Shown here piece after piece: positions 10,348 to 44,271 of a DNA stretch of 64,000 bases (positions are counted from its first letter, which is position 1; the number at the start of each line of letters is the position of its first letter). The position numbers and the translations under genes were made by a program. Under the pieces are notes generated by a model, which was given only the letters and a program-made list of their open reading frames with translations, was not told the origin of the DNA and made no database searches. The stretch lies in NCBI GenBank assembly GCA_000934665.2, contig JYFJ02001710.1, positions 1 through 64,000 on the forward strand, read 5' to 3'. This DNA is from Catajapyx aquilonaris. Its lineage: Eukaryota.

Positions 10348-10686
10348 ATGGACGCAAAGGTAATTGAAGTAATAGATTGTTTAATGCCATAGCACTAACT
10401 CACTGTTTCATGTCAAGTGCAGATACTGCTGTTCCTCGTTGTGCTGGGAGTGGTGGCGTGTGTGTCAGAAGGAGGTCACACCCACTACAAGTACGGGTTT
10501 TCCACAAAGGGCAAGTACGGGGCAGCCCAGGTGGAGGCTGGTGCAGATGACCACAAGTGGGGTTTCTCAGTCAACAACCACCACAAGGATGGGGTCAGCT
10601 ACATCAAGCAGAGTGGGGACAACACTCACCACGGAGGATTCGGAGGTGGTGCTGGAGGGGCTGGAGGGTTCGGAGGAGGATTTTAA
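10348..10686 (+). CDS. Secreted Gly/His-rich peptide, copy 1 (exons 10348-10359, 10423-10686)
   Basis: MDAK micro-exon, GT-AG intron, signal peptide, conserved core, Gly tail; TATA at 10253, TCAGT Inr, AATAAA at 10723. Confidence 0.88.
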
Positions 10687-11986
10687 ATGCCCTTTTAGTG
10701 TCTTGTAATACAAGTGGTTTTTAATAAATGCATACAAAAATGTATTCTACGATTATCAACCTTCTTTACGTCAAATGGCGTGGTAATCCTCAAAGAGATA
10801 GTGGTCCCATTATTATGACACCCATAGCCTACTCTATTGCGTTTTTACAGCTACTATGTCGCTCAAAAACATAGAGACGATTTTGCATTTTAATCACGTG
10901 CAGCCTGCACTTGAATCAAATGCAAAATCGTCCAATATGTTTTTGAGCGATATACAAGTAGTACAGTAAAAATTGCCCGAAAATAGCCCCAACAGTGAAA
11001 AAATTGGTACCGTACCTTCCTGAAACTTTTGGTTATAACTCCTATTGATAATGCCGTGCAAGAATCTGAAGAGTCCCTAAAGAATGGGTGGGTGGAAAGT
11101 GGTTTTTGGGGGTGGATGAGGGGGGGAGATGTAGGGAAAAATGAGATCAGCCAAAGTATAAGTGTGGGATGTCCATTCATATGTTTTCTGGCATGCACAA
11201 GCGAATGAAACCATAATCAAGGCCATAAAACCAACAGTTGACGTGATAAAACAAGTTTCCATGAAATTGTTTCCAAGGAACCCAACCCCAGCCCTGCGTA
11301 TACTGTCCCGCATTACTTTTACCGACCTTTACAGACTTCGCCTTCCTGCTGCAAGTACAACGTGCAGGGTAAATTTCAAACAACCTGCGACTTGCAAGTG
11401 CCCCAAGTAGCTATTTTGATTAGCATTGATTAGCACATTGATGTTCGAGAGAGTAGGGTGAAAAGAGACGAACAAGACATGCAGAAACTGTACACTAGGT
11501 TGGAGGTGAACGATCCTTTTTCAAACAAAAGTGATTTTGTAATATCCCTCATAAGTGGAATTACTGGCAATGAATCCATCAACTGTCATTTTGCAAAAGA
11601 GATTGGTACACAAGGCAGGAAGATCTAGGCAACTTTTGCAAGCCATAATTCCTTTCCTGAATATTAATGTAGATGCCACAGGAAAATAGAGCAACCGCAT
11701 CAAAATCAAGAGCTATCTTTCAAAGGTGTTTTGAAACAGGGAACCAAAGTTTCAAGATATATACGATGTGATTTATTTTGGCGTACGACTCAATACATTA
11801 ATTAATTTATTAATCATGATTAGAACCACACACCTGTACTATTAATGACAAACTCAGCCTGAAACTGTGACTTGCCAGCTTGCATTTTCGTTCTCCATAC
11901 AAAACACATGGGCAGAATAATGTATGTAAGACGTCTGGTTGCATGAGCACCTGAGAGCAGGTCAGGAAGCGTGTCCCATCCAAGGC

Positions 11987-12058
11987 GCGATGGTGGTGTA
12001 GTGGTCAGCATAGTTGCCTTCCAAGCAGTTGATCCGGGTTCGATTCCCGGCCATCGCA
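11987..12058 (+). tRNA. tRNA-Gly-TCC: tRNA-Gly, anticodon TCC (copy 2)
   Basis: Identical to copy 1; T-run terminator follows. Confidence 0.96.
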
Positions 12059-13150
12059 CTCTCTTTTTTTAAATCTTATAAAAATCTTTCGGTAGAATTT
12101 AGAGAGATAAGTCAAACCGTGGATTATGGTGCGGGTAAGTTAATGTACTACGTATTTACGTTTTGAAAGGGTATAACGACTAACCAATCTCCCATGCGGA
12201 AACATTTGAACAAGACTGCCGATCCGTTCTAATTCATGGCGATTTACTGGGTTGCAATAATTAAATTTGAGACATTTCAGTGCGTCCGAGAATTCACAGG
12301 ACAAATAGGGTTACAGTATTAGGTTCTCTCCTTGACATGACAGACTCTCACGAACTTGACAAGATATCAGCATACGTACAACAATGTTGAGTTTGTTACA
12401 AAGAGTGAAGAAATCTACGATATTTTAAACTCCTGCATAGTTAATTTGATCCTGAACCGATCCTGTCACGATTTCAGATGTTTTTATCAGTAACTTCATC
12501 ATGGTATATCCACAATATAAGAATAAACCAACACTTAGCAAGTGTACCGGAATATCTCGTTCAGGTCAATCCCTACACAAACGAACAGGTACTCGCTTCG
12601 GCGGTACACACACGAATGAAACGGTAGTCGGATTAAATTTTTGAAGGACATTTCGGACCTATTTCTATGATATGGCTCAGTCTAATTTATATCATTTTAA
12701 CCAATAATAATTTATTGTCGACATCGTACGTGCTAACGTCCAGTAGGCCTACCAGTACCAGTATAATATTATACTTGGTCAGTTGGTCTCTCAAGACAGA
12801 TGCTACCCACAGAACATTTCCGAATGACACGTCCTCCGGATAACTCACCGCGATGACTGAGGGCGATAAAAAACTCGCCAAAATGCAAAGTTGTCTTGCC
12901 TTGCGGATTGTAACTTCTGCTGAGGCAATACTTGTGACATTAGGATAGTTCGTGCTGCATACCAGTCAAGTGACTGTGTACAGCTGTAATCATGTGCTAT
13001 ATAGGACTTTACTGCACCAATAGTTCTGCAACTCTGAGCAGCAATTTGGCAAGAAAACAGTATAAAAGCTGCTTACTCCAAGGATCAGTATCAGTCGCTC
13101 AAGCGCACTTCTTCATTCAGGCAAGAGCAACCATCAAGAATCGAATCATC

Positions 13151-13513
13151 ATGGACGCAAAGGTAATTGAAGTAATGGATTGTTTAATGCCATCGCACTT
13201 ACTCGCTGCTTCATGTCAAATGCAGATACTGCTGGTCCTCGTTGTGCTGGGAGTGGTGGCGTGTGTGTCAGGAGGAGGTCACACCAACTACAAGTACGGG
13301 TTTTCCACAAAGGGCAAGTACGGGGCAGCCCAGGTGGAGGCTGGTGCAGATGACCACAAGTGGGGTTTCTCAGTCAACAACCACCACAAGGATGGGGTCA
13401 GCTACATCAAGCAGAGTGGGGACAACACTCACCACGGAGGATTCGAGGGAGGGTTCGGAGGTGGGGCTGAAGGGGCTGGAGGAGTCGGGGGAGGGTTCGG
13501 AGGGGGATTCTAA
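13151..13513 (+). CDS. Secreted Gly/His-rich peptide, copy 2 (exons 13151-13162, 13226-13513)
   Basis: MDAK exon plus ILLVLVVLGVVACVSG-GGHTNYKYGF...; TATA at 13061, AATAAA downstream. Confidence 0.9.
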   Translation: MDAKVIEVMDCLMPSHLLAASCQMQILLVLVVLGVVACVSGGGHTNYKYGFSTKGKYGAAQVEAGADDHKWGFSVNNHHKDGVSYIKQSGDNTHHGGFEGGFGGGAEGAGGVGGGFGGGF

Positions 13514-15404
13514 TAATTGCCCTTTGCAAATTATAACACAGGTGTGATTTTTAATAAATGCATACAAATGAATAATTTGACAGTTGTTCAACCTTCTTTC
13601 GGTCAAATGGCTTGGAAATCCTCAAGGTAATATTGATCCCATTATTGTGACTCCAACTCTTACGTATTTAATCAGATGAGCCTCACTGATCAACGTTAAC
13701 TTTGTAGTTTCCTTTTATTAATACTAAAATGACCACATAAGTGGTGTATTTATGAATTACTCTGTCAGTCTTGAAATCAGCGTTACAATGTTTTCAGTTA
13801 TGTGTTGTAATAATTGTAACCTGGTTAATCTGAAAAACCTACCCCCACCTTGGTAATGGTGATACACCATCGGAAGAAAGGGAGGTGAGGTTGTGATCTG
13901 ATTGGTATAAATATAATAATATATTGTCGTTCTCATTTTTCGGCAATAACTGATTAAATGACACATTTGATGATCTGATTACCTGTCACTTCTTTTACGA
14001 TACAATGATTATTAGGACTCTACTGCATTTAATTTATAAATTTTTTTCTCATGTGGCATCCTCGACGACAGTATAGGCATGCAGTAGATGATCCTGTAAG
14101 TATGGTCATATGCAATATGACTATAAGCATGATGTAATATTTGGGCTTCCGACGATGAATTAAATCAAAGGCACTGGCTGTCCTTAACTGTTAATATTTA
14201 GCCCTAGCCCAATGCAGTTAATAGCTGTGATATGTGCATAACTTAATTCATTACAAACAGATAGGCAAAAACAGTCCATACAACAACCCCCACTGGGGGG
14301 GGGGGGGGACTGGACAAATGAAACTTTGCAATAGCAGGTTTGTTTCATGGATGAGGCGACTTTTTTATTTGAATCATCAAGGACAATATGTGTACCGTAA
14401 AAATTAGCTATTCACAGGTTTACATGTAGTGTACCACTGTATGATAGTGTATGATGATTTAACTAATAATAAAATTTCCCGTATATTTTTATTTTTCTTT
14501 CTAGAAAAAGTATGTTATATTTCTTTGTTAGCGAGATATATTGACATTTTTTCGAACTTTAATTTTTAATTGAATTTTTTCGCGATTCACGGATAACCTG
14601 GACCCAGATAATCGGGAGTAATGAGTACAATGTATGAACATACATGTATGAAAATATAATACATCTCAGTGTACATTACTTACATGTATGCAAGAAAAAA
14701 AGCTGCAAATTTTACTCACGTACAAGAAGTGTACCCAATTCAACTTTTTTCTTTGTCAAAAATTCCGCAACTGTTTCGCACTTTTCCACACAGAATAAGA
14801 GGTGTTGAGATATGAAAGTTGTTACGTATTGCTAGCAATACCACAATTGATATTAGAAGTTCTAAGACCCAGTATATTGCATGCAGTACAGTCCTCTAAC
14901 TCAACAATGGTGCGGAATCTTGAAAAAGGTGTAGAATGGTGTTTTGTTTCCAATGAGAAATTACAGCTGGACACAAAGTCTAACGTCTATGTTGAATAGA
15001 ACTCTTTCGGGTCTGAAAAGGCTATATCTTTGGGTATTTACTGCTATCAAATGAGCCATCTGGGGAATTTGGAGGTGTACTAGTATTGGCCTTGACCCAT
15101 AGAGCTCGTTAAGTGCATAATCTCAATTTTTTTCTTTTTGGCACTAACCCCCTTTATAATGTCTACTCTTCATTTTTATTAACAACAGTGAGGTGCGTCT
15201 ACCGGTGCAGCACATTCCATCAGGCCTCGTCATGGCAATCGCTTGATTGCACATTCTCAATTTCTTTTTTTGCTAGTCTCCGCCAACATTTTGAAACTCA
15301 TACAGGTATAAAAGCTGTTTCTCACAGACATTTTATATCACTTCCTTCAGCACCTCCAGCAGAAGACATCGCTCGAGGGTTCAAGCCAATCCAATCTATA
15401 CGCC

Positions 15405-15824
15405 ATGGATTCTAAGGCAATAGTCTGATTAAGTTCACTTCAACACAAGAAGGTATAGTTGTTCTCGATATTGACAACGAATTTTCTTAATTGCAACATG
15501 CATCAGATACTGCTGGTCCTCGTTGTGCTGGGAGTGGTGGCGTGTGTGTCAGGAGGAGGTCACACCAACTACAAGTACGGGTTTTCCACAAAGGGCAAGT
15601 ACGGGGCAGCCCAGGTGGAGGCTGGTGCAGATGACCACAAGTGGGGTTTCTCAGTCAACAACCACCACAAGGATGGGGTCAGCTACATCAAGCAGAGTGG
15701 GGACAACACTCACCCCGGAGGATTCGGAGGTGGGGCTGGAGGTGGTGCTGGAGGGGCCGGAGGGGCCGGAGGGGCCGGGGGAGTCGGGGGAGGGTTCGGA
15801 GGGGGATTTGGAGGGGGATTTTAA
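15405..15824 (+). CDS. Secreted Gly/His-rich peptide, copy 3 (exons 15405-15416, 15507-15824; GC donor)
   Basis: MDSK exon followed by GCAATA instead of GT; exon 2 intact; TATA at 15307. Confidence 0.75.
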
Positions 15825-16690: not shown

Positions 16691-16762
16691 GCGATGGTGG
16701 TGTAGTGGTCAGCATAGTTGCCTTCCAAGCAGTTGATCCGGGTTCGATTCCCGGCCATCGCA
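16691..16762 (+). tRNA. tRNA-Gly-TCC: tRNA-Gly, anticodon TCC (copy 3)
   Basis: Identical to copies 1 and 2; T-run terminator follows. Confidence 0.96.
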
Positions 16763-17457
16763 CTCTCTTTTTTTAATGTTAAAAAATCTTAAGGCAGAAT
16801 AATTGTGACAGATGGTCAAATCTGCATATTGTGGCGCGGGTGAAACAAAATCACGATTTCATGTTTCTATCAAGAATTACCTCATGGTCCATCCAAGACG
16901 GAAGCGTAAACGACTTAATTGGTATAGAAGTATCAGAAAATTACTCTACATCACGTAGGCCTACATGTCAATATTTACACGGAAGACCAATAGTCGGATT
17001 ATATTGTTAAAAGAACATATATAGATGGTGCGAAAAACTGTACACCTAATAATATATGATAGTACACTTACAAGTTAGTCAAGTTTAACATTTAAGCAAT
17101 AACTGTGACATACTGTATATCATGCAACTATCATGCATTTGGTCTTTTGTTACTTTTGTCAGAAGACAGATTCCACCCACAGTCCTATATTACCTATAGG
17201 ACCTCCTGAAAAACCCTTGCGATGACTGAGGTCGATGAGAAACTTGCCTCAGTGCAAAGATGTCATACCTTTCCAGTGATAATTTCTGAGACTGTTCCTT
17301 GTGACAAACGCATGGCAAACGTCACTTCTTGCGGAGGTTCATATTCTCAGTTATCGCAATGGGTGTGGATGGCATTCAAATGAGGAGGTGGGTGGAAGCT
17401 GCTGTTTAGCAGAAGACGCGTAGCTCTAGCTCAGAGTATAAAATTAATACGTAAACT

Positions 17458-17467
17458 GGGAAATTCC
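17458..17467 (+). promoter_or_regulatory. kappaB-like site GGGAAATTCC upstream of peptide gene 4
   Basis: Same motif and similar spacing to the TATA box (17591) as in gene 1. Confidence 0.45.
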
Positions 17468-17680: not shown

Positions 17681-18043
17681 ATGGACGCAAAGGTAATTGA
17701 AGTAATGGATTGTTTAATGCCATCGCACTTACTCGCTGCTTCATGTCAAATGCAGATACTGCTGGTCCTCGTTGTGCTGGGAGTGGTGGCGTGTGTGTCA
17801 GGAGGAGGTCACACCAACTACAAGTATGGGTTTTCCACAAAGGGCAAGTATGGGGCAGCCCAGGTGGAGGCTGGTGCAGATGACCACAAGTGGGGTTTCT
17901 CAGTCAACAACCACCACAAGGATGGGGTCAGCTACATCAAGCAGAGTGGGGACAACACTCACCACGGCGGATTCGAGGGAGGGTTCGGAGGTGGTGCTGG
18001 AGGGGCTGGAGGAGTCGGGGGAGGGTTCGGTGGGGGATTTTAA
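17681..18043 (+). CDS. Secreted Gly/His-rich peptide, copy 4 (exons 17681-17692, 17756-18043)
   Basis: MDAK exon, 63-nt intron, intact exon 2; TATA at 17591. Confidence 0.9.
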   Translation: MDAKVIEVMDCLMPSHLLAASCQMQILLVLVVLGVVACVSGGGHTNYKYGFSTKGKYGAAQVEAGADDHKWGFSVNNHHKDGVSYIKQSGDNTHHGGFEGGFGGGAGGAGGVGGGFGGGF

Positions 18044-19212: not shown

Positions 19213-19620
19213 TTACCCTGGTGTCCACCATATGAACAGTGCTCCTTGCTCCTCGACTTCTTCGTCCTTCTCCTCCTTCTTTTCCTCTTTGACGAAGTAA
19301 GACACCTTCTGGATGATAGTGATTGGCACCTTCTTCCCAACCGGGACATTGTACACCACTGGCACCTTGTAGACCACTGGGGCATGCTTCACTTCTGGCA
19401 TCTTCACCACGTAGGGTCGAGGCTCTTAATGTGCACATTCGGAACCTTCACTATATTATATTATAATCATGTGCATAGATATTAAAGGCTAATATTTATG
19501 ATCACGTGCTTTATCTTCTTCTCCGTCTTTGGAGCTTCCTAATTTGACCTGCAGTCACAGATAAGGCCTCTCTTAATCTGCAAACTTGTGCACAATGTAC
19601 GGAACTATTACCTTTGTGTC
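19213..19620 (-). pseudogene. Degraded Val/Pro/Lys/Tyr-rich low-complexity (structural-type) protein fragment
   Basis: The minus strand reads IVKVPNVHIK, then after a 1-nt frameshift EPRPYVVKMPEVKHAPVVYKVPVVYNVPVGKKVP...KEEKKEEKDEEVEE. Upstream fragments KVIVPYIVHK and EAPKTEKKIKHV are separated by stops. Confidence 0.45.
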
Positions 19621-20353: not shown

Positions 20354-20765
20354 ATGGATTCTAAGGTACCGTTCATTCCAACCCAAGAAGCCCCTTTTTA
20401 TTAACGTCAATTTTTTTGATTGCAACGTGCAGATACTGGTGGTCCTCGTTGTGCTGGGAGTGGTGGCGTGTGTGTCAGGAGGAGGCCACACCAACTACAA
20501 GTACGGGTTTTCCACAAAGGGCAAGTACGGGGCAGCCCAGGTGGAGGCTGGTGCAGATGACCACAAGTGGGGTTTCTCAGTCAACAACCACCACAAGGAT
20601 GGGGTCAGCTACATCAAGCAGAGTGGGGACAACACTCACCACGGAGGATTCGAGGGAGGGTTCGGAGGTGGTGCTGGGGGGGCTGGTGGTGGGGCTGGAG
20701 GAGCTGGAGGAGCTGGGGGAGCTGGGGGAATCGGGGGAGGATTCGGATTTGGAGGAGGCTTTTAA
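20354..20765 (+). CDS. Secreted Gly/His-rich peptide, copy 5 (exons 20354-20365, 20433-20765)
   Basis: MDSK exon, GT-AG intron, long Gly tail; TATA at 20265. Confidence 0.9.
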
Positions 20766-22782: not shown

Positions 22783-23181
22783 ATGGATTCCAAGGTAATC
22801 AATAATTTCATTGCAATCCGAGAAGTCAGTGATATTAACTAGGACATTGTTGATTGCAACATGCAGATATTGCTGGTCCTCGTTGTGCTGGGAGTAGTGA
22901 CGTGTGTGTCAGCCGGAGGTCACATCAACTACAAGTACGGGTTTTCCATCAAGGGCAAGCATGGGTCAGCCCAGGTGGAGGCTGGTGCAGATGACCACAA
23001 GTGGGGTTACTATGTGAACAACCAACATAAGGATGGGGTCAGCTACATCAAGCAGAGTGGGGACAACACTCACCACGGAGGATTCGAAGGAGGGTTCGGA
23101 GGTGGTGCTGGAGGGGCTGGTGGTGCCGGAGGTGGTTTCGGTGGGGGTTTCGGGCTGGGAGGAGGATTCGGAGGGTTTTAA
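22783..23181 (+). CDS. Secreted Gly/His-rich peptide, copy 6 (exons 22783-22794, 22867-23181)
   Basis: MDSK exon; core variant GGHINYKYGFSIKGKHGSAQ...HKWGYYVNNQHKD; TATA at 22688. Confidence 0.9.
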
Positions 23182-23773
23182 ATGCCATATATGTATATTA
23201 TAATGCAACTTGGTTTTTAATAAATGCATACAAATTAATTGTAATCTCATAATAACACCTTTGCAGTACAACACACCATACAGTACCAAGACATGAAAGC
23301 TTTTGATCTATTATGCAGCTCGCAATTTTCTAACAAATCACCTTATTACAGGACCATGTCCTAATACTACAGAAATTAAGCAGAGCACACGCCATAGCAG
23401 GATGTAAGCTTTCAATTTGCCATGCATCAAAGAGAGAACATATTACAGGACACAACCGGTAAAACATGATCCAGCTTATCATTATCAACAACACGATTCA
23501 ATTATTCGTGTTTTAGGGCCTATATCTCCGGTTGTCAGTGTGAAGCGCACACAGTATTAGTACAGCACACCTTGCATAGGTTTTTCTAAGTAACGGTTTC
23601 CGCCTATGTACTCTCTGATATTTAACTGTCTCATTTGAAGATGTAAGACAATTTTCCAATTACACTTCTTGAAATGTGGCTGATTTCAAGAAGATTATAA
23701 CTTTTAATCTGATTGGACCTATTGTTCCGAATTTCAGTTCTTTATTGTCCGTTCTCATCATCCGACCACCGTG

Positions 23774-25774
23774 ATGGAAGTGACGCGTTTCATACTGATG
23801 GCATGGCTGACAGTGGCACCGTACTTGCAAATACAGGTACTGACAAGTAACCTAACTCTATCTGGTGAGGACGAAGATTTGGTTAAGCAGCTGGTGGAAC
23901 ACCTATTGCAATCAGAATTCAGCAGGTGCTCTCTGGTAGTGTCCACTGACGAGCCACGGATTGGCAAGAATGGGCAAGATCTGATTGCCAGCCAAGCACA
24001 ACAATACCGTCAGTCATTGTTAATTCGGATGGATGCTTTCACACTCTCTTACAAAGATTACCCGGGCACGCTCAGGCAGAGTCAGCTTTATGATTTCCGC
24101 ACCATGCCTCCTGGGCTCAAGTCCACCTTGTGGCCAGGTGGTTCCTGTACCTTCCACCTCTTCTTGGTATCCACACCTAACGTTCTGTCCAACCTGATCA
24201 TTCACACAGCATCTTCGGTTAAGTTTAAGAACCTCTACGACACCTTCTTGTTTCACTTCAATGGTGGTGATCCAGGCAATGTCATGCTCAGCACCCTGGC
24301 CAATGGGATCAGATTCAAGCTGGCCACTACAATGACCCAGAGTGGACTTAGCATGTCCACAGTCTGCATGTTTTGCAATGGAGGCCAACATCAAAATATG
24401 AAACTGGGCTTGTTTGATAGGAATCGTGTCATGGGTGACCTTTACCCCGATTTTTCGACCAACTTAAACAAGGCATTAGTAAAAGTATTGTATTTCTTTC
24501 CCATGGATATGGAAGAGGTGCGCAGGCAGCGTGATGAGCATGGTGAGATTAGTTTAGACTTCGTTGCAAAAGCAGTTCTCCATGTAGAGCATGTGTGTAA
24601 CGCCACAGTAGAAATAGTAGAAATGACTATTGAAGACGATAAACTTGACACACCCAATCCAAATGGCAGCTGGAGTGGGGCAACTGCCGATGTTATGAAG
24701 GGAACTGTAGACGCATCTACATTCACCATGTTTCATGACACTGTTGGCAGATATGCATATCTTGCTTACCCAACTATGTTTGGAAGTATCATGTTTGTTA
24801 GCAGATTAGCTCGACCTGTAATTCGATGGGAAGTAATTGCTGAACCATTTACATTGAAGGCCTGGCTTTTTATTGCATTTATGATGATTATATCTACAGT
24901 TGCAATACACTTAATTAATCGGAAAAGAGCTGATTATGGCGAAGACTCTGAGACGATCACTATGATTAGTTCCCTGAACTACACTTTTCGCTTACTGATT
25001 TCACAACCAATGGAAATATCTCATTTTGCACCTCATTACTCTTTTGTGGCTTTTTTCTCCATGTTTTGTGTGATAGTGTCTACTGCTTACATCAGCAAAA
25101 TAGTCGCTTTCCTGACCTATCCTAGCAAAGAATTCGTACCTACAACATTTGAAGAGCTGATCAATTCTGATTGGAAATGGGGAATGCCAACGGAGGAGTT
25201 CATTGCAACAAAAGTTCTCTTTGCTGATTCACAGAATCCTTATCATAAAATTGTTATGGCCAATTCTCTCTTAATGGAAAGTATCGATATATGTTTCAAA
25301 AATGCAATATTTCAAAAGAAATTAGTGTGCATTGCCCTTAATGCCCGAATTGCTATGGAAGAGACGAAATATTTAGACACCACTGGTAAATCAACTATTG
25401 TAAAGTCCAAGGAAACTCTGAACAGTAGATATAACACTTTTGTTTTTAGTTATTCAGCAACATATGCTCCTTACTTAGACAAACTTAACGTGGTATGCTT
25501 TGAACAGGGCATTACAGATAAATTTATTAATGACAATTCGTTTTATAATTTTGTTTCCCACGTTTTGCGTCATAGAGATAAAATGATAAAAGCAGCATCT
25601 AATGATGATGTTCTGACTGTGGAAAAACTTTCCACCATGTTTCTTTTGTGGTCACTAGGGTTAGGTTGGTCTGTACTTGGATTCATCTTCGAAATATTTA
25701 GCCATAAAAAGAGCACATGGGTGGATAATACCAGTAGAAAAGTGTCGCCAACAGCATTCGAATTCTTGAGATAA
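23774..25774 (+). CDS. Divergent ionotropic receptor (IR / variant iGluR), intronless, copy A
   Basis: ~666-aa ORF with S1-like NGSWSG..ADV.KG.VD, EPFT..AW plus M1, M3-like TAYISKIVAFLTYP, PTTFEEL and a C-terminal M4 (LTVEKLSTMFLLWSLGLG). Confidence 0.88.
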   Translation: MEVTRFILMAWLTVAPYLQIQVLTSNLTLSGEDEDLVKQLVEHLLQSEFSRCSLVVSTDEPRIGKNGQDLIASQAQQYRQSLLIRMDAFTLSYKDYPGTLRQSQLYDFRTMPPGLKSTLWPGGSCTFHLFLVSTPNVLSNLIIHTASSVKFKNLYDTFLFHFNGGDPGNVMLSTLANGIRFKLATTMTQSGLSMSTVCMFCNGGQHQNMKLGLFDRNRVMGDLYPDFSTNLNKALVKVLYFFPMDMEEVRRQRDEHGEISLDFVAKAVLHVEHVCNATVEIVEMTIEDDKLDTPNPNGSWSGATADVMKGTVDASTFTMFHDTVGRYAYLAYPTMFGSIMFVSRLARPVIRWEVIAEPFTLKAWLFIAFMMIISTVAIHLINRKRADYGEDSETITMISSLNYTFRLLISQPMEISHFAPHYSFVAFFSMFCVIVSTAYISKIVAFLTYPSKEFVPTTFEELINSDWKWGMPTEEFIATKVLFADSQNPYHKIVMANSLLMESIDICFKNAIFQKKLVCIALNARIAMEETKYLDTTGKSTIVKSKETLNSRYNTFVFSYSATYAPYLDKLNVVCFEQGITDKFINDNSFYNFVSHVLRHRDKMIKAASNDDVLTVEKLSTMFLLWSLGLGWSVLGFIFEIFSHKKSTWVDNTSRKVSPTAFEFLR

Positions 25775-27358: not shown

Positions 27359-27830
27359 ATGGATTCTAAGGTAGGTATCCGAAATGCATTGTGATGTACT
27401 GTACAGTACTTTGTACAAGTATTTTTCAGCTGTTAATATGGCAGTTTAATGTAAGCTATGGCATATACTGCAATAACAATTTTGTCCATTACATATGCAG
27501 GTATTATTCCTCCTTGTGGTGGGAGTGCTGGTCTGTGTGTATGCTGGTGGTCACACCCAGCACAAGTATGGTTTCGCCATCAAGGGCAAGTACGGGTCAT
27601 CCCAGGTGGAAGCTGGTGCAGATGACCACCACTATGGGTACTCAGTCAACAACCACCATAAGGATGGGGTCAGCTACATCAAGCAGAGTGGGGACAACAC
27701 TCACCACGGAGGATTCGAGGGAGGGTTCGGAGGTGGAGTGGGTGGGGGCTCTGAAGGTGCTGGAGGTGCTGGAGGTGCTGGAGGTGCTGGAGGGGTCGGG
27801 GGAGGGTTCGGATTCGGAGGAGTCTTTTAA
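27359..27830 (+). CDS. Secreted Gly/His-rich peptide, copy 7 (exons 27359-27370, 27501-27830)
   Basis: MDSK exon; VLFLLVVGVLVCVYA-GGHTQHKYGFAIKGKYGSSQ...HHYGYSV; TATA at 27247. Confidence 0.9.
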
Positions 27831-30916: not shown

Positions 30917-31366
30917 ATGGATTCTAAGGTATCCGAAACTCACTGTGATGCATTGCACTTATATTATTGAGTTGTTAATAATATTATGGCAACAGAATGT
31001 AGGCTACCTCTAATTATACTGCAGTAACAACTTTTTTCATTACATATGCAGGTATTATTCCTCCTTGTGGTGGGAGTGCTGGTCTGTGTGTATGCTGGTG
31101 GTCACACACAGCACAAGTATGGTTTCGCCATCAAGGGCAAGTACGGGTCATCCCAGGTGGAGGCTGGTGCAGATGACCACAAGTGGGGTTTCTCGGTCAA
31201 CACCCACCACAAGGATGGGGTCAGCTACATCAAGCAGAGTGGGGACAACACTCACCACGGAGGATTCGGAGGTGGAGCTGGAGGGGCTGGAGGGGCTGGA
31301 GGGGCTGGAGGAGCTGGAAGGGCTGGAGGAGTGGGAGGGGGATTTGGCTTCGGAGGAGGGTTTTAA
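30917..31366 (+). CDS. Secreted Gly/His-rich peptide, copy 8 (exons 30917-30928, 31052-31366)
   Basis: MDSK exon, intact exon 2; TATA at 30823. Confidence 0.9.
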
Positions 31367-31483: not shown

Positions 31484-32327
<844 letters not shown>

Positions 32328-32328
32328 T

Positions 32329-33482: not shown

Positions 33483-33910
33483 ATGGATTCTAAGGTATCT
33501 GGAACTCACTGTGATGCTCTGCATGTATTTATTCAGTAGTTGTTAATAGAGCAGTATAATGTAACCTACTGCTATGTCATATACTGTAACAGCAATTTTT
33601 CATCATTATACACATGCAGGTATTATTCCTCCTTGTGGTGGGAGTGCTGGTCTGTGTGTATGCTGGTGGTCACACTCAGCACAAGTATGGTTTCGCCATC
33701 AAGGGCAAGTACGGGTCATCCCAGGTGGAGGCTGGTGCAGATGACCACAAGTGGGGTTTCTCAGTCAACAACCACCACAAGGATGGGGTCAGCTACATCA
33801 AGCAGAGTGGGGACAACACTCACCACGGAGGATTCGAGGGAGGGTTCGGAGGTGATGCTGGAGGAGCTGGAGGGGCTGGAGGGGCTGGAGGAATCGGGGG
33901 AGGGCTTTAA
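33483..33910 (+). CDS. Secreted Gly/His-rich peptide, copy 9 (exons 33483-33494, 33620-33910)
   Basis: MDSK exon, intact exon 2 ending GGGL; TATA at 33372. Confidence 0.88.
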
Positions 33911-35601: not shown

Positions 35602-36569
35602 TTTGTTCAGTATCCGTTTAAGCACTGGGATGACAATCAATGTGAAAATGACTGCGATAAGATGTTGGTACAATTTATCAAATGTGTAATCTTATGACGT
35701 ATAGATGCTGTGAGTGACTCATAGGTGAAGAAGTTCAAAAAGACACTGAATGGAAGATATAAAACTATTGTAAAAAAACGCCTATAATTTTTAAATTATA
35801 TAAGCCCTATAATGTTTGGGATCGTTTGAAACCACCATATAATATTGATTAATTCTGTTATGTAACAGCATCTATATGAATATTGCAGAAAATTGGCACT
35901 GTATTGCCTCTATGTCGCGTAGGAGTAGCGCACATGCTTTGTAATTTGCACGACAATTTGAGTTTCTTGACAACAGGCGTGTGCTACCTTTTGAATGTTT
36001 CCGTTATACATTTCACTAATTTGAAAAGAAGGTTAGAGTGTTTGTACTTGCTCTGTACTTAGGCATCCTACACCAGCCTACTTATTACTCTCAATGCACT
36101 AAGTAGATTTAATACGCAATTGTTGCCATGACTTCCTTATAAAATTCCGATATTATGTAAAGGTGACCTTGACACCTTGTAGTCTTACAACTTTACATTA
36201 GCCCTCCGCGTTACGATATTATCAGTCAGGTTCTCCGCGACAAATTACAAGGCAAAACAGCACATAATTGCTAATTAATATTTCACACAGAAATGTATGC
36301 TCCATTCGTAATATCACAAGGCAGAAGGCACTCTTACCACCTATGCCAATTTATAATCATGAATTAGTCAGGATGACAACATTATCTCTAACAAGCAATA
36401 TTACTTAACCTGCTCACAAACTTCTGGATATCTGCAGTGCTACAAACTACTACAAGTAACTCAGTTCGGATCCCCAGAAACTGTAGAAAGCAGCAAGTAG
36501 TGCACTCAAGTCACTATAAAAATGACGCAAACAATTCACCTTGACACGGGCTGACACCTTCCAACAAAA

Positions 36570-38549
36570 ATGAACCGTATTTGGTTTTTAGTGATTCTGA
36601 TAGGAGAGTTGCAAGACATAGAAATGAGATCTAATTGGACCTTCTATGGTGTGGAAGATGGAGAAGAACTTCTGAGAGAGTTCGTGGAACATCTTGTGCA
36701 ATCCTCTGAATACAAGGAATGCTCTCTTGTGCTGTCCACGGATTCACGGATCAGCAGAAGCGTCGAAAAGTTATTAATGACAGAAGAGCAAACGTATCGC
36801 CAGATATATCTTGTTCATATGAACACATTTGAAATTTCGTTCAAAAATTATCAATCAGTGCTCAGGCAGGAACAACTGTTTGATTTCCGCACAATGCCTC
36901 CTGAGCTGAAATGCAGGCGATGGGCTGGTGGACCCTGTACTTTTCATCTCTTCATTGCATCCAACCCGAAGATTCTCTCCAAACTTTTCGTCCACGCAGT
37001 GTCCGTTGTCCGCGTGCATAACTTGAAGCACACCTTTCTGTTTCACATGCAGAGTGGAAATCCTGACAAAGTCCTAATCGGGAAACCATTCAGTGGTATT
37101 CGACTTAAGTTGGCTTCATCTATGATATCAGAAGGTCTTCGCTTGTCCAGTGTTTGCCTCTACTGCAACGAAGGAGAGGATATCAACATAGACATGGGTG
37201 TCTTTGACGGACATGACAACAAGATGGCAGAAGATCTGTACCCTGACTGGGCAGACAACATGCATCACCACGTAATAAATATGGTGTATTTCTATTCTCT
37301 AGACATGGGTGAGGTTAGAAAAAAGCAGGCAAAATTAGGTTCAGACGCATTAGATTTTCACGAGAGGGTTTCATTACACACTGAAAAGATGGGTAATTGC
37401 ACCTTAAATGTTTATGCTCTTGAAATCTCAGATGAAAATAGTGTTGACAAGAGATTTGACAATGGTAGCTGGGCTGGGTTTGTTGGAGATATTCTCAAAG
37501 GCAAAGCGGATATTTCGTTTTTTGGATTGCTAACTGAGCATCACAACAGGTATGTGACGCTGACCTATCCGACAATGTTTGCCAACTTTATGTTTGTCAC
37601 AGGGATCCCTCAAACCAAGCCTCAAACGGTCATTAGCTGGGAAGTGATATTCGAGCCATTCACAGATGGAGCTTGGAGTTTCATTTTGGGCATGCTGATT
37701 CTATCATCTATAACAATCTATTACATTCACAAGAAGCAAGCACATTTTGATCACACATCACAGCATGTGTCTGTAATCAAATGTCTGAACTTCACTTTCC
37801 GCCTTTTGATCGGACAACCAATTGAAATATCTGATTTTGCACCTCATTACTCATTTTCGTCTTTTTTGGCCATGTTTTGCGTGATAGTAGCCACTGCTTA
37901 CACAAGCAAAATAGTTGCTTTTCTAACCTATCCAGGCAAAGAATTCGTACCGACCACGTTCGACGAACTGGTCAACTCAGATTGGAATTGGGGCATGCCC
38001 GTGGAAGAACTTATAGCTCTGAAAATATTTGTTCCCAATTCTCAGAACCCTATACACAAAGCGATTGTAGAACAGGCTCTCATGATGCAAGACATAGTAA
38101 CATGCATAGAGAGTGTTACTGTAATACGCAAATTAGCCTGCATAGCTCTCGATATCAGAGTTTACATAGAAAGTGCCAGATTCTTAGATTCAAGTGGAAA
38201 TTCTATGATACTTAAATCTAAGGATAACATTGCTAGCAGGTACTCCAGTGTTCTCATTAGCGCTGGAGAACCTTATGCTATGAATGCAGAGAGAATAATG
38301 TCAGTCTTGGAGTTTTCACTAACGGACAAATGGCTTGCAGACAATGCGTTTATTAATTTTGTGTCACACGCGCTGCGTCACAGAGAAAAATTCATGAAAG
38401 AGACAGTCTGTGAAGATGTTCTGACTGTGGCCAAACTGTCTGCTATATTTTACATGTGGGCCATTGGGTTAGGGGCAGCTGTTCTTATATTTGCTTGGGA
38501 AATGTTTCCTCGCATCAAGATCCCACATTTGTTACGCACTCGTAAATGA
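36570..38549 (+). CDS. Divergent ionotropic receptor, intronless, copy B
   Basis: 659-aa ORF paralogous to copy A (DFRTMPP, NGSWAG, EPFT, TAYTSKIVAFLTYP, PTTFDEL, M4). Confidence 0.88.
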   Translation: MNRIWFLVILIGELQDIEMRSNWTFYGVEDGEELLREFVEHLVQSSEYKECSLVLSTDSRISRSVEKLLMTEEQTYRQIYLVHMNTFEISFKNYQSVLRQEQLFDFRTMPPELKCRRWAGGPCTFHLFIASNPKILSKLFVHAVSVVRVHNLKHTFLFHMQSGNPDKVLIGKPFSGIRLKLASSMISEGLRLSSVCLYCNEGEDINIDMGVFDGHDNKMAEDLYPDWADNMHHHVINMVYFYSLDMGEVRKKQAKLGSDALDFHERVSLHTEKMGNCTLNVYALEISDENSVDKRFDNGSWAGFVGDILKGKADISFFGLLTEHHNRYVTLTYPTMFANFMFVTGIPQTKPQTVISWEVIFEPFTDGAWSFILGMLILSSITIYYIHKKQAHFDHTSQHVSVIKCLNFTFRLLIGQPIEISDFAPHYSFSSFLAMFCVIVATAYTSKIVAFLTYPGKEFVPTTFDELVNSDWNWGMPVEELIALKIFVPNSQNPIHKAIVEQALMMQDIVTCIESVTVIRKLACIALDIRVYIESARFLDSSGNSMILKSKDNIASRYSSVLISAGEPYAMNAERIMSVLEFSLTDKWLADNAFINFVSHALRHREKFMKETVCEDVLTVAKLSAIFYMWAIGLGAAVLIFAWEMFPRIKIPHLLRTRK

Positions 38550-39069
38550 TCTTCACATACTTATTGTTGTTCTTCATGACTCAGCACTTGTCCAATATTA
38601 ATTACTGTTGTCGTCGTCGTTGCAGTCGTCTTGTTGTTGTTCTTGTTTCAAAGTATTAATCGTGTTGTGAGCATGTTCATATTGAAGAATATTAATTATG
38701 ATGAAAATGTATGTAATATTTACAGAGCTGAGGGTATAGTTAATCACTCATAACGTCAGGGCTAAAGAGCTTATATGTGCAATTATAAGCTCTTTGGTCA
38801 GGGCTGTCAGCCCCACAATATAATGTAACAGACTGTGCTAACCAAAGAAAAGAAACGCTGTATTGCGCCCAATCACTTCTCTTACGATAACATTGCACAA
38901 AATATTGTTCAACCTGCACGGCGATAAAAATTATTGCGGCACACCTGTAGTATAAAATAACCCCAGGTATTGGTGAGGTTATCATCAGTTGCCTTGCAGC
39001 TACCACTTCAGGAAGGTGCCATATTTCCCATAGCCAAGTTCGAACTTTTGGAAATCAAACACAATCGCC

Positions 39070-39498
39070 ATGGACATAAAGGTAAGGTAACCATGCATTC
39101 AGAGACCATATGTTTTATTATTTTCAAAAATTTCAATACTCAACTCTTATAGGTGAACCAATATGGAACAAATTCACATAATGTTTGCTGACAATTTTCC
39201 TGTACAGGTCATCCTGCTGCTGTTGTCTGGCGTCATTGCCTTGGCTAATGCTGGTGGTCACACCCAACATAAGTATGGTTTCGCCATCAAGGGCAAGTAC
39301 GGGTCATCCCAGGTAGAAGCTGGTGCAGATGACCACCACTATGGGTACTCAGTCAACAACCACCACAAGGATGGGGTCAGCTACATCAAGCAGAGTGGGG
39401 ACAATTCACACCACGGAGGATTCGGAAGTGGGGGTGCTGGAGGAGCTGGAGGCGCTGGTGGAGTGGGAGGGGGGTTCGGATTTGGAGGAGGGTTTTAG
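39070..39498 (+). CDS. Secreted Gly/His-rich peptide, copy 10 (exons 39070-39081, 39208-39498)
   Basis: MDIK exon; VILLLLSGVIALANA-GGHTQHK...; TATA at 38951. Confidence 0.9.
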
Positions 39499-40058
39499 AA
39501 GGTGTTGCCATCAAATATGTAACAAATCGCTAATATCAGCTTATGTTATGATTGCGAAATAAAGATTTCTGTTAGACCTACATTTTGTGTAACTTTTACT
39601 GGTCTGAGAGTGATGCAAGACAGTGCATATCGCGTTACTGCTTCACCGCTTATGTGGGAAATAAGTAGCCTATAGCTACATGGCTTATTGGGGCATATAA
39701 TCTACATCTACCCATTTGATACTAAACTTACTGAGGTGTAGGCTATATTAGATATACATTGAATGTAATGAGTCCACCACACTCAAGAGTACCCTATTAC
39801 AAGTTAATTAATGAAAATTTTGACCCACTGTTGAGAAAAGGCCATTGTCTGAGACTCTGAGTAAGTCTGTCGTACTGGCACCTACACTGTAGCCAAGCTA
39901 ATATATATACCGTAGCTCTGTTACTATGGAAGTAATAAGGTATTTTACTTCAGTTGCGATACCTGCGATCTTACCAGGTGAATGCCTTTGCAATGGCACA
40001 GACACAATACAATGCATTGTACAGTGAACTTTCATTACCCATTTACTCCTAAATTTAA

Positions 40059-40665
40059 CCCTTAACTATAGTATCATTGGGTCTTTTTTGACCCGAAACT
40101 TACGAGAATTAACATTAGTTGGCCCGTAATTAGCCGTGTAGTAAGCATGCCCGTTAATTAGGTTAATCGAAAGACAAATGCTATTGTGTATTTCTCAAAT
40201 ATATCTTTGTCTATTTGTTAATTTCCTTCAAATTTTGGAGAAAAAAAATCAGGGCACTCAAAAAACATTATATTATATAACCAAGGTGCATATTTTGTAG
40301 GGTGCACACCTATACTTCTATCTGTAGGCTACAGTAATCCTGAAAATATTAATTGAAAATCATTTTATGTAGCCGTCATATGCTCATCATTTGAAACTTT
40401 CTACATAGTAAGCATATTTGGAAATACTGTTAGTGCTGTAGGTTGCTGCTGTGATATCTATAATTATACATGTTCAAGTACGGTATATTTGCGTAGTCTT
40501 CAGTGCTCAATCACATTTTCTATGAGTCTTTTTCATTATTTACACAATAAGATTTATGCGAGCTTATTTGACATCCATACAAAATTTAATGGCATGAATT
40601 GGAGATTTAATATAATTAAATTACCGCAAGGTGGCACAAAAGACCCCATGATACTACGAGTAGGT
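40059..40665. mobile_element. piggyBac-like non-autonomous element, degenerate
   Basis: TTAA followed by CCCTTAACTATAGTATCATTGGGTCTTTTTTGACC at the left; partial inverted match AAAAGACCCCATGATACTA at about 40637-40657. Confidence 0.5.
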
Positions 40666-41466
40666 ACGTTGCTCATGGGAACTATTGGTTTGGTGCGAAC
40701 CAAAATAAAAATAAATTGTAGTGGTTTAGTGGAGATAAATAAGTGGAATAAGAACGTGATAACCTGGAGTTCTGACTCACCCTGTATTTTAAAAACAGTG
40801 CTTTAAATATTGATGCGGTAAACTATTAGTATTACAATTTCTGTAATTGGTTGTGTAAGAAGTAACTTTAATAATTTCCTTAAATTCTATTGCATGATAT
40901 TTGATTAGGTCAGAAGTCAATTGTCCCATAAGTGAGGAAGTGCGACTGATTATTGTTAAATGTTACATACAAGTACAATGCACAGCCTACATACAATAAT
41001 TAGTCAATGAATTGATCTCATTAAGAAGTCTCTATACACTCAGCGATGATCCGGTAAGCGCACCTGGCCATCTCATTAATTTTGAATCAGTGAAATGTTA
41101 CAAGTAAACTTAACACTCTAGGCTAGGGCTAGACTACTAGAAATTAGCTAAATAATAATAATTTTTGCAATTAGCGTTCCTTTCTAGTCGGACCACCCCG
41201 TATAAATGGCCAAATTCTTGGCAATCGTTGCAGTAAGAAAAAAGTAAAGCCGTCATGCTTCTTTGCACTATTATGATCGAATTATTGCGCCGTCATTTGG
41301 AAACTCGTCGGCGCCAACCAGATCCACCGAGTGTTTCGCCATGTTGGTACACATTGTTCACTATCATTTTGCTATAAAACCCCAAGCATCACCACCTCTC
41401 AATATCAGTTCTCGCACAACTACTACTACTCACACATCAGCTGAGGAAACCCATCAAACAATCGCC

Positions 41467-41874
41467 ATGGACCTCAAGGTAAGAAATAATAGTTATCAGC
41501 CCAATGAGGGTTTGTAGCAGTGTACGTACTTCTGAAATTAAATAATGTTGCACTATGATTTGATATTACTATTTTAGATTGCTTTGCTACTGATATCTTG
41601 CGTCGTCGCCTTGGCAAGTGCTGGTGGTCACACCAACTACAAGTACGGGTTTTCCACAAAGGGCAAGTACGGGGCAGCCCAGGTGGAGGCTGGTGCAGAT
41701 GACCACAAGTGGGGTTTCACAGTCAACAACCACCACAAGGATGGGGTCAGCTACATCAAGCAGAGTGGGGACAACACTCACCACGGAGGATTCGGAGGTG
41801 GGGCTGGAGGGGCTGGAGGAGCTGGAGGCATAGGTGGGGGATTAGGTTTTGGAGGAGGATTCGGAGGATTTTAG
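41467..41874 (+). CDS. Secreted Gly/His-rich peptide, copy 11 (exons 41467-41478, 41578-41874)
   Basis: MDLK exon; IALLLISCVVALASA-GGHTNYK...; TATA at 41373. Confidence 0.9.
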
Positions 41875-41988
41875 ACATTACAGGGCATTTATGTGGCGTT
41901 AAAGTTTTACTTTATGTAAAATACTTTATGTGCAATAAAAAACTTATGCGTAGAAACAACTATAAAATTTCGACCACCTGACACCATG

Positions 41989-43411
41989 CTACCCTTGCGG
42001 CATTTCGCAGATGACGCTGAACTGATGCTCGCATCGATCATCATTCCACTGAAAGTCCAACTTCCCGTACAATTCCAAGCAGTGTTCCTGTTTCCCTGAA
42101 TTGCTGGGTTCTCTGGATGCCCAACCCGACCACTGGATGGGCCGTGATGGTTTCAGCCAGTACCAGGACCCTTCCTGCCCACGGTCGCTACCCCCGATGA
42201 AGCTCCGGGGTTGAACTTTGGCTGGAATGTATGTCATATCAGTTACAATGTCGATTGTTGCGTTGGATCATCCTTACATGCTCGAAGATAATCCCTGATC
42301 AGAGTATTTTCTTCCGGGGTTTCCACTATGAGTAGGTGTCCTCCGAGTGACCTGCAGTAGGATAATCCGTCGTGCCAAGACATTCTAGACTCACCAGAGA
42401 AATGGTAGCATCCTCCTCCCATGATGATAAAAGGATACTGGCATTTTTTATCAGCTCTTCTCGACACTATTTCCGGAATTGCTAAATGCGGATGGAAATG
42501 ATGACTGTACTTCTTTTATTAAATTGATTTCATTTGACAATACTCACCCTTGATATGTTCATCAATATAATCCTTTTTGACACACTCTCTAGAAATCAAA
42601 TCAAGTCGATCAGCAAGAGCTGCAGCAGCTTGCTTAGACGATGACACCATGGAATCGGCAGATATTCTTATCGCCTCCATTATTACATCAGCGGAATTCT
42701 ATTGGAAACATTAGAAGTGCTGTAGTTTTGTTGTTCACATAGTCGTTGATCACATATTACCTTGACATAATTTAGGTCAGTTGCCAATGATGTCAAGACT
42801 TCACTGGTACGTTTCTGCTCATCCGCACAACTTGATATTGCCCTGGAAGTTGTAAGCATGTTGCAAAAGCAAGTCGTCTATATCAATCGATGACAATGTG
42901 TGGTCACACCTGTTGACAGACGATTCCGTGATTTTCCTGAAAGCTTCGCCGCACTTGGACACTTCTCTGGCTGGTGACAAGTTCTGCTCGACTTTTTCGA
43001 CGTGACTGTTGGCAATGCCATCCAGACACACCAAGTGACCACGTATCTTCATGATGTCATTCTCCTTCAACTCCTTTAACGCGTCTTTCAGCTCATTTAA
43101 CTGATCTCTCGTGTCCTCTTTGATGTTCTTTGCTGTAACATATAATGAAATCGAAATGATACTTGAGCAGTTGTAATTACACGCACATTTGAGTACTCAC
43201 TTGCTTGAATCAGACCGTTTTCTACTGCTTGTTGCACAACCGGTTCTACAGCTTGGACCACAGCGTTGATGATCCTTGCCAGCTCTTCATCGCCAACAAC
43301 GTTCGTCGTCGACCCCCCTAGATTTCTGGCTACATTATTGTCTCTCAAAAAATGTCCACTTACACCACTGTAAATCAGAATAGTAAGCAAGAGGCCTCCT
43401 AGGAACCCCAT
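41989..43411 (-). CDS. Secreted C-type lectin with long helical N-terminal region, 6 exons
   Basis: Signal peptide, helical/coiled-coil-like exons, then a CTLD: CQYPF..GGGCYHF, WHDG..YC..LGGHL, FIGGSD, EGSWYW, EPSN, EHC, WNDDRC, ICE. Splice phases are consistent. Confidence 0.9.
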
Positions 43412-43980
43412 CTCGGGCCGTTGCGATAAAGCCCACTGCTGCTATAATTATATGTAGCCACCAGATATATGTGACCGCAACCCTGCAGTCGCATATCAAG
43501 GGTTATCCAATAGCCTCATAATAGGGTCAAACATGCAACAGCAACGTTCATCTGATGCATATTCAGCAACTTACAAAAATATATACACGAAATTCCCATT
43601 TCAACTGTGCACTGCCATAATAAGTACCGGTACGTAACAATGTAAATATGTACAGTACAAATACACAACATTTGTTCCGCATTGTATAGCATCAATGCAA
43701 TCTAGTTTCTGCAAAGCTTTGAGAAACGAATTTTAAGTTAAAGTGTTCATACGTTACAGAGAAAGCAGTAGGTGCAATCAGTGAAATTGTGCAGCAAAAG
43801 TAAAAGCTGTTCAGTTGGTTGGGTTCAGAAACACACCATTGCCCACCATGATTTTGGAATCATTTACTGCCATTTCCTCACATTTTTTTCAGAACAATAT
43901 AAAAACCCAGAATCGTACAGGTAGAGTATCAGTCATCACCCAACAAGCACCTCAACATCAGCTCACCAAACAACATCGCC

Positions 43981-44271
43981 ATGGACCTTAAGGTAACTGC
44001 AATTTTGATCATAGGCTGATATGTTCTAACATTTTTCTCTCAGGTTATGCTGCTTCTTCTTTGCATCATGGTTGCCTTCACCCATGCTGGTCACACCCAG
44101 CACAAGTACGGGTTTTCCATCAAGGGCAAGTACGGGTCATCCCATGTGGAGGCCGGTGCAGACCACCACAAGTACGGCTACTCAGTCAGCAACCACCACA
44201 AGGACGGTGTCAGCTACATCAAGCTCAGCGGTGACAACACACACCACGGAGGATTCGGAGGCGGCTTCTAA
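43981..44271 (+). CDS. Secreted Gly/His-rich peptide, copy 12, most divergent and shortest (exons 43981-43992, 44044-44271)
   Basis: MDLK exon; VMLLLLCIMVAFTHA-GHTQHKYGFS...; tail only GGFGGGF; TATA at 43898. Confidence 0.88.

Follow-up and report, generated by a model that had tools for sequence, protein, structure and literature searches.

The question raised by positions 10,348 to 44,271 of a 64,000-nucleotide (nt) stretch of the Catajapyx aquilonaris genome (contig JYFJ02001710.1 of assembly GCA_000934665.2, positions 1 to 64,000; the whole stretch is called the window below) is what a tandem array of twelve genes for short, secreted, glycine- and histidine-rich proteins encodes, and whether these proteins belong to any described family. 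A first-pass annotation had proposed an amplified effector family, in the sense of an immune peptide, a defensive secretion or a metal-hardened material. We found that, as judged from its sequence, the array is a real, intact, selected and unannotated family of 12 genes, and that it is a new sequence family of unproven function; by analogy, it falls within the familiar class of arthropod secreted low-complexity proteins. The products are probably lineage-restricted, small, disordered proteins, and bulk extracellular structural material of the arthropod cuticle type is the leading, still tentative, reading of their function. The notion of an amplified secreted Gly/His-rich family thus stood, and the features examined lean away from a classical immune peptide.

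Twelve genes of one architecture

A tblastn search of the whole window with the 57-amino-acid (aa) core recovered the 12 same-strand copies that had been reported, all of them on the forward strand and within the array (E 1e-23 to 1e-35, identity 78-100%). Five further tblastn rows, with E >= 1.3, are noise, and no copy was found in the 64-kb window outside the array. The array runs from the ATG of copy 1 to the stop codon of copy 12 (Table 1). Copy 12 diverges most from the others, and no other tail is as short. Self-comparison of the window indicated that most duplicated units measure merely 250-900 bp, that is, a gene with short flanks; one larger unit of about 1.5 kb, with acid-phosphatase exons, was duplicated once.

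Each copy opens with a 12-nt exon (ATG GAn nnn AAG) encoding MDAK, MDSK, MDIK or MDLK, followed by a phase-0 intron of 51-130 nt whose 3' end is a pyrimidine-rich tract and AG, so that the four-codon exon and the intron phase described earlier were seen in all 12 copies. In exon 2 the frame continues in phase 0 with a hydrophobic stretch; the signal peptide is thus divided by the intron. Exon 2 is open in 12 of 12 copies, as had been claimed, and ends in TAA or TAG. The gene model of copy 3 was amended: its ATG is placed at 15405, and its splice donor is GC (exon end AAG, then GCAATA), as against GT in the other 11 copies. This GC donor marks either a GC-AG intron or a weakened donor and is the sole irregular splice site among the 12. 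An in-frame ATG lies directly 5' of the acceptor in copies 2, 3, 4, 6, 7, 8 and 9, which makes a one-exon reading possible for these copies and impossible for the other five; since this ATG is present in only seven of the 12 copies, it cannot be the start codon of the family. The two-exon model, deduced from conservation, is the only one that gives all 12 copies a predicted signal peptide starting with Met.

The signals expected around such genes are conserved. In an alignment of the 260 nt upstream, TATAAA(A) is found 83-119 nt 5' of the ATG in every copy, with ATCA[G/C]T about 25 nt 3' of the TATA box, which we take to be an arthropod-type TCAGT initiator. A poly(A) signal (AATAAA or ATTAAA) follows the stop codon by 15-60 nt in 12 of 12 copies. 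The promoters were also screened with consensus strings for kappaB, GATA, FTZ-F1, the ecdysone response element (EcRE) half-site, E74, BR-C, STAT and AP-1 motifs, and none of these was consistently present across the 12; the STAT-like count of the copy 7 promoter stems from a 10-nt tandem repeat.

The head of the mature protein is under purifying selection. In the 12-row alignment, 36 of 57 columns are invariant in the conserved head of the protein versus one of 16 in the signal-peptide part, and the pairwise ratio of nonsynonymous to synonymous divergence (dN/dS) of the 53-codon head is 0.04-0.41 for pairs with dS > 0; dS reaches 0.9 between subfamilies and is 0-0.07 among copies 1-5. The head of copy 11, which was converted to the copy 1-3 type, is 99% identical to those of copies 1-3, whereas its promoter, intron, signal peptide and 3' flank are only 42-54% identical to theirs; likewise, copies 7 and 10 share 96% of the head and about 50% of its surroundings. 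This mosaic of similar heads and diverged flanks implies that purifying selection acts together with gene conversion; the head has been homogenised by conversion, while signal peptides and flanks diverged.

Codon choice is strongly biased toward C/G-ending codons (CAC 76 versus CAT 6, AAG 70 versus AAA 0, TAC 41 versus TAT 12), as compared with 6/12, 13/22 and 11/13 for the same pairs in the neighbouring ionotropic-receptor-type gene. Such a bias is the pattern expected for highly expressed genes.

A conserved head, a glycine tail and few relatives

The precursors are 79-114 aa long and the predicted mature chains 60-94 aa (6.4-9.0 kDa), with 22-38% Gly, 6-15% His and no Cys in any of the 12; Cys is confined to the signal peptides. 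In the head, each mature protein carries five to nine His, three to five Tyr and several Lys residues. The isoelectric point is 6.5-9.1, and the calculated net charge is -1 to +3 at pH 7.4 and +5 to +10 at pH 5.5. The chain consists of a conserved head and a (GGX)n tail of 7-40 aa; the Cys-free core described earlier was confirmed in kind, its length being 53-54 aa rather than about 52. The head is formed by two related units of about 24 aa, each opening with aromatic-K-aromatic-G-F-S (local alignment score 34 versus 20.3 +/- 4.5 in 2000 shuffles, 1.2% of which reach 34), and contains the pair HH twice. The tail is built from Gly, Ala and Phe with some Val, Ile, Leu and Glu, in GGF, GGA and GGV motifs, and usually ends in GF, as noted before (10 of 12 copies; VF in copy 7 and GL in copy 9). 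Its DNA bears 9- and 18-nt tandem repeats, and the variation in tail length is attributable to slippage at these repeats.

AlphaFold2, run on the 12-row alignment, gave a mean predicted local distance difference test score (pLDDT) of 48 and a predicted template modelling score of 0.18, with helix in the signal peptide only; the mature part was modelled as disordered, with pLDDT < 50 for nearly all residues 18-105. Signal-peptide cleavage was placed by the -3/-1 rule. For copies 6-12 the cut is predicted to fall behind an Ala; copies 6-11 would thereby begin with Gly-Gly-His and copy 12 with Gly-His. Copies 2-5 would probably acquire the Gly-Gly-His N-terminus by a cut between VSG and GGH, and the residue at -1 is Glu in copy 1. 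All 12 aligned sequences share Gly18 and His19.

Sequence databases returned almost nothing. Pfam-A was searched by hmmscan at E <= 1 with nine of the 12 copies, and no family was matched, a single row at E = 0.11 being noise; a profile search of the PDB gave 0 matches. A word-indexed search of 5.8 billion proteins gave one match for the whole protein and two of two candidates for the head alone, all from one ENA contig. An exhaustive phmmer search over 1.84 billion representatives returned only P0001 and P0002, open reading frame (ORF) fragments of that 558-nt contig, which are 84-86% identical to the array proteins over the C-terminal half. Taken as a unit, the two fragments resemble a single gene from a related organism, its head being interrupted by an additional intron. 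A scan of JGI metagenomes yielded 437 pattern matches, 0 of which were confirmed by tblastn. A search for sequencing runs containing the sequence listed four DNA runs, all from one sample and study and possibly the source of the window, one unclassified run with 0.03 of the sequence words, and no RNA run. A full-text literature search, covering text outside figures and supplements, found no paper with a 12-residue stretch of the head, and keyword literature searches found none describing the family. The earlier statement that no named family could be assigned was thus borne out, with two ORF fragments as the only relatives.

The protein database searched includes annotated arthropod proteomes, as is clear from a search with the parkin gene of the window, whose best matches were arthropods at 57-59% (cockroach, mantis shrimp, locusts, mayfly, horseshoe crab), ahead of vertebrates at 51-56%. 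On this evidence, the window is likely to come from an arthropod that has no annotated close relative. Because arthropod proteomes are present and no match was found, the family is missing from current annotations; either it is lineage-restricted, or low-complexity genes with such a mini-exon have been left uncalled. A language-model atlas was queried with the whole protein and, separately, with the head; the nearest cluster was in both cases an arthropod 'pupal cuticle protein-like' cluster (scores 0.79 and 0.77, below the reliability line of 0.9, and hence a lead only).

Candidate functions

We rank a structural protein of the cuticle type first, an antimicrobial or immune peptide second, another secreted material third and non-functional copies last, with the remainder unassigned. 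In the structural reading, the signal peptide would be removed and the head would then dock onto a fixed partner, chitin or another matrix protein being the leading candidates. Quinones or metals could then cross-link the chains at His, Lys and Tyr, with the flexible Gly tail providing a spacer or a cohesive segment. The array, with its many copies held nearly identical through gene conversion, would deliver much product in a short period such as a moult. We infer this mechanism of docking, cross-linking and spacing throughout; the conserved mature head, with its low dN/dS, argues for a fixed binding partner rather than an arms race.

The closest parallel in gene organisation is offered by the CPR cuticular protein genes of Anopheles gambiae. 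Of the CPR genes with introns, 86% are reported to be interrupted in the signal peptide, the median and mode of the first exon being 12 nt; introns of RR-2 genes are in phase 0 in 96% of cases, and the sequence clusters show concerted evolution (PMC2259329). Some clusters are described as reaching 17-19% His, with His and Lys implicated in sclerotisation, and Cornman et al. considered that CPR sequence clusters may answer a need for high output (PMC2259329). The array resembles the CPR/RR-2 clusters in its 12-nt first exon, the phase-0 intron in the signal peptide and the two-exon structure (12 of 12 copies), in products of about 100-120 aa encoded by compact tandem arrays of near-identical genes that differ in untranslated regions and introns, and in concerted evolution, purifying selection and His/Lys-rich, Cys-free mature proteins. 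These traits (a signal peptide split after a short first exon, modally of 12 nt, an intron in phase 0, and tandem arrays evolving in concert) are typical of CPR genes and do not define them. Unlike the CPR clusters, the array proteins showed neither the R&R chitin-binding consensus nor another Pfam cuticle domain in the nine copies scanned, and no sequence related to their head was detected among annotated arthropod proteomes. CPR membership was rejected, because the R&R domain was lacking in these nine copies.

Functionally, the array proteins would work most like the low-complexity Gly-rich cuticular proteins of the honeybee GB12449/GB12811 type. The published features of honeybee Gly-rich cuticular proteins include abundant Gly, a signal peptide, a Cys-free mature protein and the GGY motif (PMC3766229). 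The first three of these four were found in the array, where Gly exceeds 20%, and the fourth was not: the tails have GGF, GGA and GGV instead of GGY or GGYGG, and a non-repetitive, conserved head of 54 aa dominates the chain.

Several observations weigh against a cuticular role. No match to the Chitin_bind_4/R&R domain (about 64 aa) was found at E <= 1 in the nine copies scanned, and GGY and GGYGG are absent from the 12 aligned proteins. Ecdysone-type motifs are not consistent among the promoters, FTZ-F1-like sites being present in two of 12. The neighbouring genes (chemoreceptor-type ion channels, acid phosphatases, a C-type lectin and parkin) include no cuticle gene. Short first exons in signal peptides are, according to the Anopheles study, not unique to cuticle genes (PMC2259329), and the counts of codons and of conserved positions across paralogues are not independent of each other.

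The main rival reading, which we consider less likely, is a His-rich and Gly-rich antimicrobial or immune effector that would gain positive charge in acid or when loaded with metal, and would harm microbes directly or through copper redox at an X-X-His N-terminus of the copper- and nickel-binding amino-terminal (ATCUN) type. Arthropods are known to have antimicrobial peptides (AMPs) that are small, secreted, rich in Gly, devoid of Cys and encoded in tandem arrays, and armadillidins carry GGGF repeats (PMC7017220). The calculated charge of the array proteins rises between pH 7.4 and pH 5.5 but is near zero at neutral pH in most copies. The mature part is conserved and the signal peptide variable, which is the reverse of the pattern often seen in fast-evolving AMPs, and AlphaFold2 gave neither an amphipathic helix nor any other structure. 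A perfect kappaB-like decamer, GGGAAATTCC, precedes the ATG of copies 1 and 4, at about -226/-223 (positions 10122 and 17458); it is confined to these two of the 12 promoters and is mutated in copy 2, their close paralogue. GATA sites are depleted (5 in the 12 promoters versus 13.1 +/- 3.8 in background windows). Copies 11 and 12 are separated by a gene for a secreted C-type lectin, which would be in keeping with an immune setting. Taken together, the conserved head, the near-neutral charge and the inconsistent kappaB and GATA sites weigh against a classical inducible cationic AMP; a pH- or metal-dependent His-rich peptide may be compatible with the same features.

Membership in described AMP families was considered in turn. 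Pfam holds models for AMPs of the attacin, diptericin, gloverin and coleoptericin types and for crustins, and none was matched by the nine copies scanned. Crustins additionally have a Cys-rich/WAP domain, and crustin membership was rejected also for want of Cys in the mature part. Armadillidins are like the array proteins in being small, secreted and Cys-free, with Gly, Phe, His and GGGF motifs. They are described from terrestrial isopods only, with a consensus RPYIGGGG followed by three to seven G-rich tetrapeptides (GGGF in five to six copies in Armadillidiidae) (PMC7017220). The array proteins, in contrast, lack RPYIGGGG, have one to three GGGF per tail and are near neutral in charge, and armadillidins lack the 54-aa head. 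On the missing N-terminal consensus and the extra head, membership was rejected.

The metal idea of the first-pass annotation survives as a lead through the predicted X-X-His N-terminus. An ATCUN site requires a free N-terminal amine and His at position 3 of the mature chain. Natural AMPs with such sites include histatin, hepcidin and piscidin (PMC7701195). With these peptides, and with the Gly-Gly-His model peptide, the array may have in common its N-terminus, a Gly-Gly-His start being predicted for at least six and probably ten of 12 copies, with His pairs downstream; the related ENA fragment P0002 would begin with T-G-H. Unlike in those peptides, the cleavage site is predicted by rule, copies 1 and 12 depart from the pattern, and the remaining sequence is unrelated.

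A third reading, rather improbable in our judgement, makes the family a component of some other secretion or product of a gland. Examples would be adhesives, secretions resembling silk or cement, coacervates that form in response to pH, and tools hardened with metal, such as the tip of a mandible, claw or sting. The disordered composition rich in Gly, His and aromatic residues and the pH-switched charge are consistent with it, the HH pairs and the predicted X-X-His N-terminus could hold metal, and so many copies with such a codon bias point to production in bulk. The proteins are, on the other side, very short for fibres. Very high His plus Gly contents and a location in metal-bearing or sclerotised tips are the marks of His-rich matrix proteins from jaws, beaks and fangs. 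His-rich proteins of jaws or beaks have His contents well above 6-15%, so that the array falls below that level.

Three tRNA-Gly(UCC) genes upstream of copies 1, 2 and 4 also bear on this reading. They are identical in sequence, score 66.4 bits each against the Rfam tRNA model and end in a 3' run of 7-8 T, while their flanks have diverged. As canonical, identical tRNA genes with terminators, they were rejected as short interspersed elements. They were duplicated together with copies 1, 2 and 4, which form the MDAK subfamily. A weak tRNA-like match on the reverse strand at 8980-9047 (37.7 bits), beside a long simple repeat of the (ATT/AAT) type at about 8.7-8.8 kb, is probably a decayed tRNA or a tRNA-derived element. 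GGA and GGG, the codons readable by the UCC anticodon, make up 71% of the 349 Gly codons of the family versus 53% in nine other ORFs of the window (Fisher p = 1e-4, a value inflated by paralogy). The arrangement recalls the tRNA pool of the silk gland, which is adapted to fibroin (Garel, cited in PMC2790905): in both, a Gly-rich product is associated with extra tRNA-Gly capacity for its commonest Gly codons. The silk case, however, is a change in the tRNA pool, whereas the link here is one of genomic adjacency and co-duplication and may be coincidence. One chance adjacency followed by co-duplication is the simplest account, and a supply-and-demand link between these tRNA genes and the peptide mRNAs is a possibility only.

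The predicted Gly-Gly-His N-terminus and the tRNA genes could be joined in a bolder proposal, to which we assign a low probability: a new metal-handling extracellular class in which Gly-Gly-His loads Cu(II) or Ni(II) for cross-linking of Tyr and His in a matrix or for killing microbes, the three tRNA-Gly(UCC) genes being a co-amplified supply module for GGA/GGG-rich mRNAs. Ni-Gly-Gly-His is a known tyrosine cross-linking reagent (PMC7701195), and matrix cross-linking by the array proteins would be a natural counterpart of that laboratory reagent. Decaying or never-expressed duplicates, with frames open merely through youth, are scarcely credible: the GC donor of copy 3 and the close similarity of copies 1-5 would fit, but all 12 frames are open despite dS of 0.4-0.9 between subfamilies (dN/dS 0.08-0.3), every one of the 12 has retained its TATA box, initiator, ATG context, splice sites and poly(A) signal amid surroundings that are unalignable (42-56%), and a relative at 84-86% identity occurs in another assembly.

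Genomic context and significance

No neighbouring gene points to the function of the array. Two ion-channel genes interleaved with it are of the variant ionotropic-receptor (chemoreceptor) type, and two histidine acid phosphatase copies, 76% identical, lie between peptide copies. The C-type lectin has a coiled-coil-like N-terminal and middle part, and the parkin gene has a GC content of 52%, above that of its surroundings. Between copies 4 and 5, a 70-aa ORF on the reverse strand (19213-19425) contains Pro-Val/Lys-Val-Pro-Val repeats followed by an acidic Lys/Glu stretch; it has no Pfam match and could be an exon of another low-complexity secreted protein, or noise. Between copies 8 and 9, perfect (GTA)19 and (TAA)19 trinucleotide repeats abut at 31852-31963.

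Table 1. Genes and other features of the window, in order of position.
Feature	Position	Strand	Description
Dehydrodolichyl/undecaprenyl diphosphate synthase-type exon	4038-4607	-	
tRNA-Gly(UCC) gene 1	9748-9820	+	0.5 kb upstream of copy 1
Copy 1	10348..10686	+	exon 1 10348-10359 (MDAK), intron 63 nt, exon 2 10423-10686 including stop; 91 aa
Copy 1 signals			TATAAA at -95, ATCAGT initiator, poly(A) signal 37 nt past stop
tRNA-Gly(UCC) gene 2	11987-12059	+	1.1 kb upstream of copy 2
Copy 2	13151..13513	+	exon 1 13151-13162 (MDAK), intron 63 nt, exon 2 13226-13513; 99 aa
Copy 3	15405..15824	+	exon 1 15405-15416 (MDSK), GC donor, intron 90 nt, exon 2 15507-15824; 109 aa
tRNA-Gly(UCC) gene 3	16691-16763	+	0.9 kb upstream of copy 4
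Copy 4	17681..18043	+	exon 1 17681-17692 (MDAK), intron 63 nt, exon 2 17756-18043; 99 aa
Copy 5	20354..20765	+	exon 1 20354-20365 (MDSK), intron 67 nt, exon 2 20433-20765; 114 aa
Copy 6	22783..23181	+	exon 1 22783-22794 (MDSK), intron 72 nt, exon 2 22867-23181; 108 aa
Ionotropic-receptor-type gene	23708-25774	+	intronless ORF, 688 aa, ligand-gated ion channel domain; interleaved with array
Copy 7	27359..27830	+	exon 1 27359-27370 (MDSK), intron 130 nt, exon 2 27501-27830; 113 aa
Histidine acid phosphatase exons	about 28.7-30.3 kb and 34.1-35.6 kb	-	two multi-exon gene or fragment copies; exons at about 28.9-29.9 kb and 34.1-35.4 kb
Copy 8	30917..31366	+	exon 1 30917-30928 (MDSK), intron 123 nt, exon 2 31052-31366; 108 aa
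Copy 9	33483..33910	+	exon 1 33483-33494 (MDSK), intron 125 nt, exon 2 33620-33910; 100 aa
Ionotropic-receptor-type gene	36555-38549	+	intronless ORF, 664 aa, ligand-gated ion channel domain; interleaved with array
Copy 10	39070..39498	+	exon 1 39070-39081 (MDIK), intron 126 nt, exon 2 39208-39498; 100 aa
Copy 11	41467..41874	+	exon 1 41467-41478 (MDLK), intron 99 nt, exon 2 41578-41874; 102 aa
Secreted C-type lectin gene	41989-43441	-	between copies 11 and 12; signal peptide, lectin domain split over two ORFs
Copy 12	43981..44271	+	exon 1 43981-43992 (MDLK), intron 51 nt, exon 2 44044-44271; 79 aa
Parkin	44403-46249	+	follows array; ubiquitin-like domain, RING0/RING1, IBR; few long exons
Adhesion/secretin-type G-protein-coupled receptor exons	47-64 kb	both	7tm_2, GPS, HRM; some with lectin-like, Thr-rich mucin-like stretches
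ATP synthase delta/epsilon-type gene	50.6-52.1 kb	-	

At present, the array represents an orphan among tandem families, although its general kind is familiar. Genes that are so short and of such low complexity, with a first exon of 12 nt, are likely to be overlooked by automatic annotation. If the proteins are structural, they would constitute a further matrix family of the cuticle type, one for which annotated arthropod proteomes show no detectable relative, and they would provide a compact model of a conserved docking head joined to a slippage-prone Gly tail and kept uniform by gene conversion. If they are immune peptides, they would constitute a new family of His-rich AMPs that switch with pH or metal. 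Should they prove functional, the tRNA-Gly genes duplicated with the array and the Gly-Gly-His N-terminus predicted for its products would be of note.

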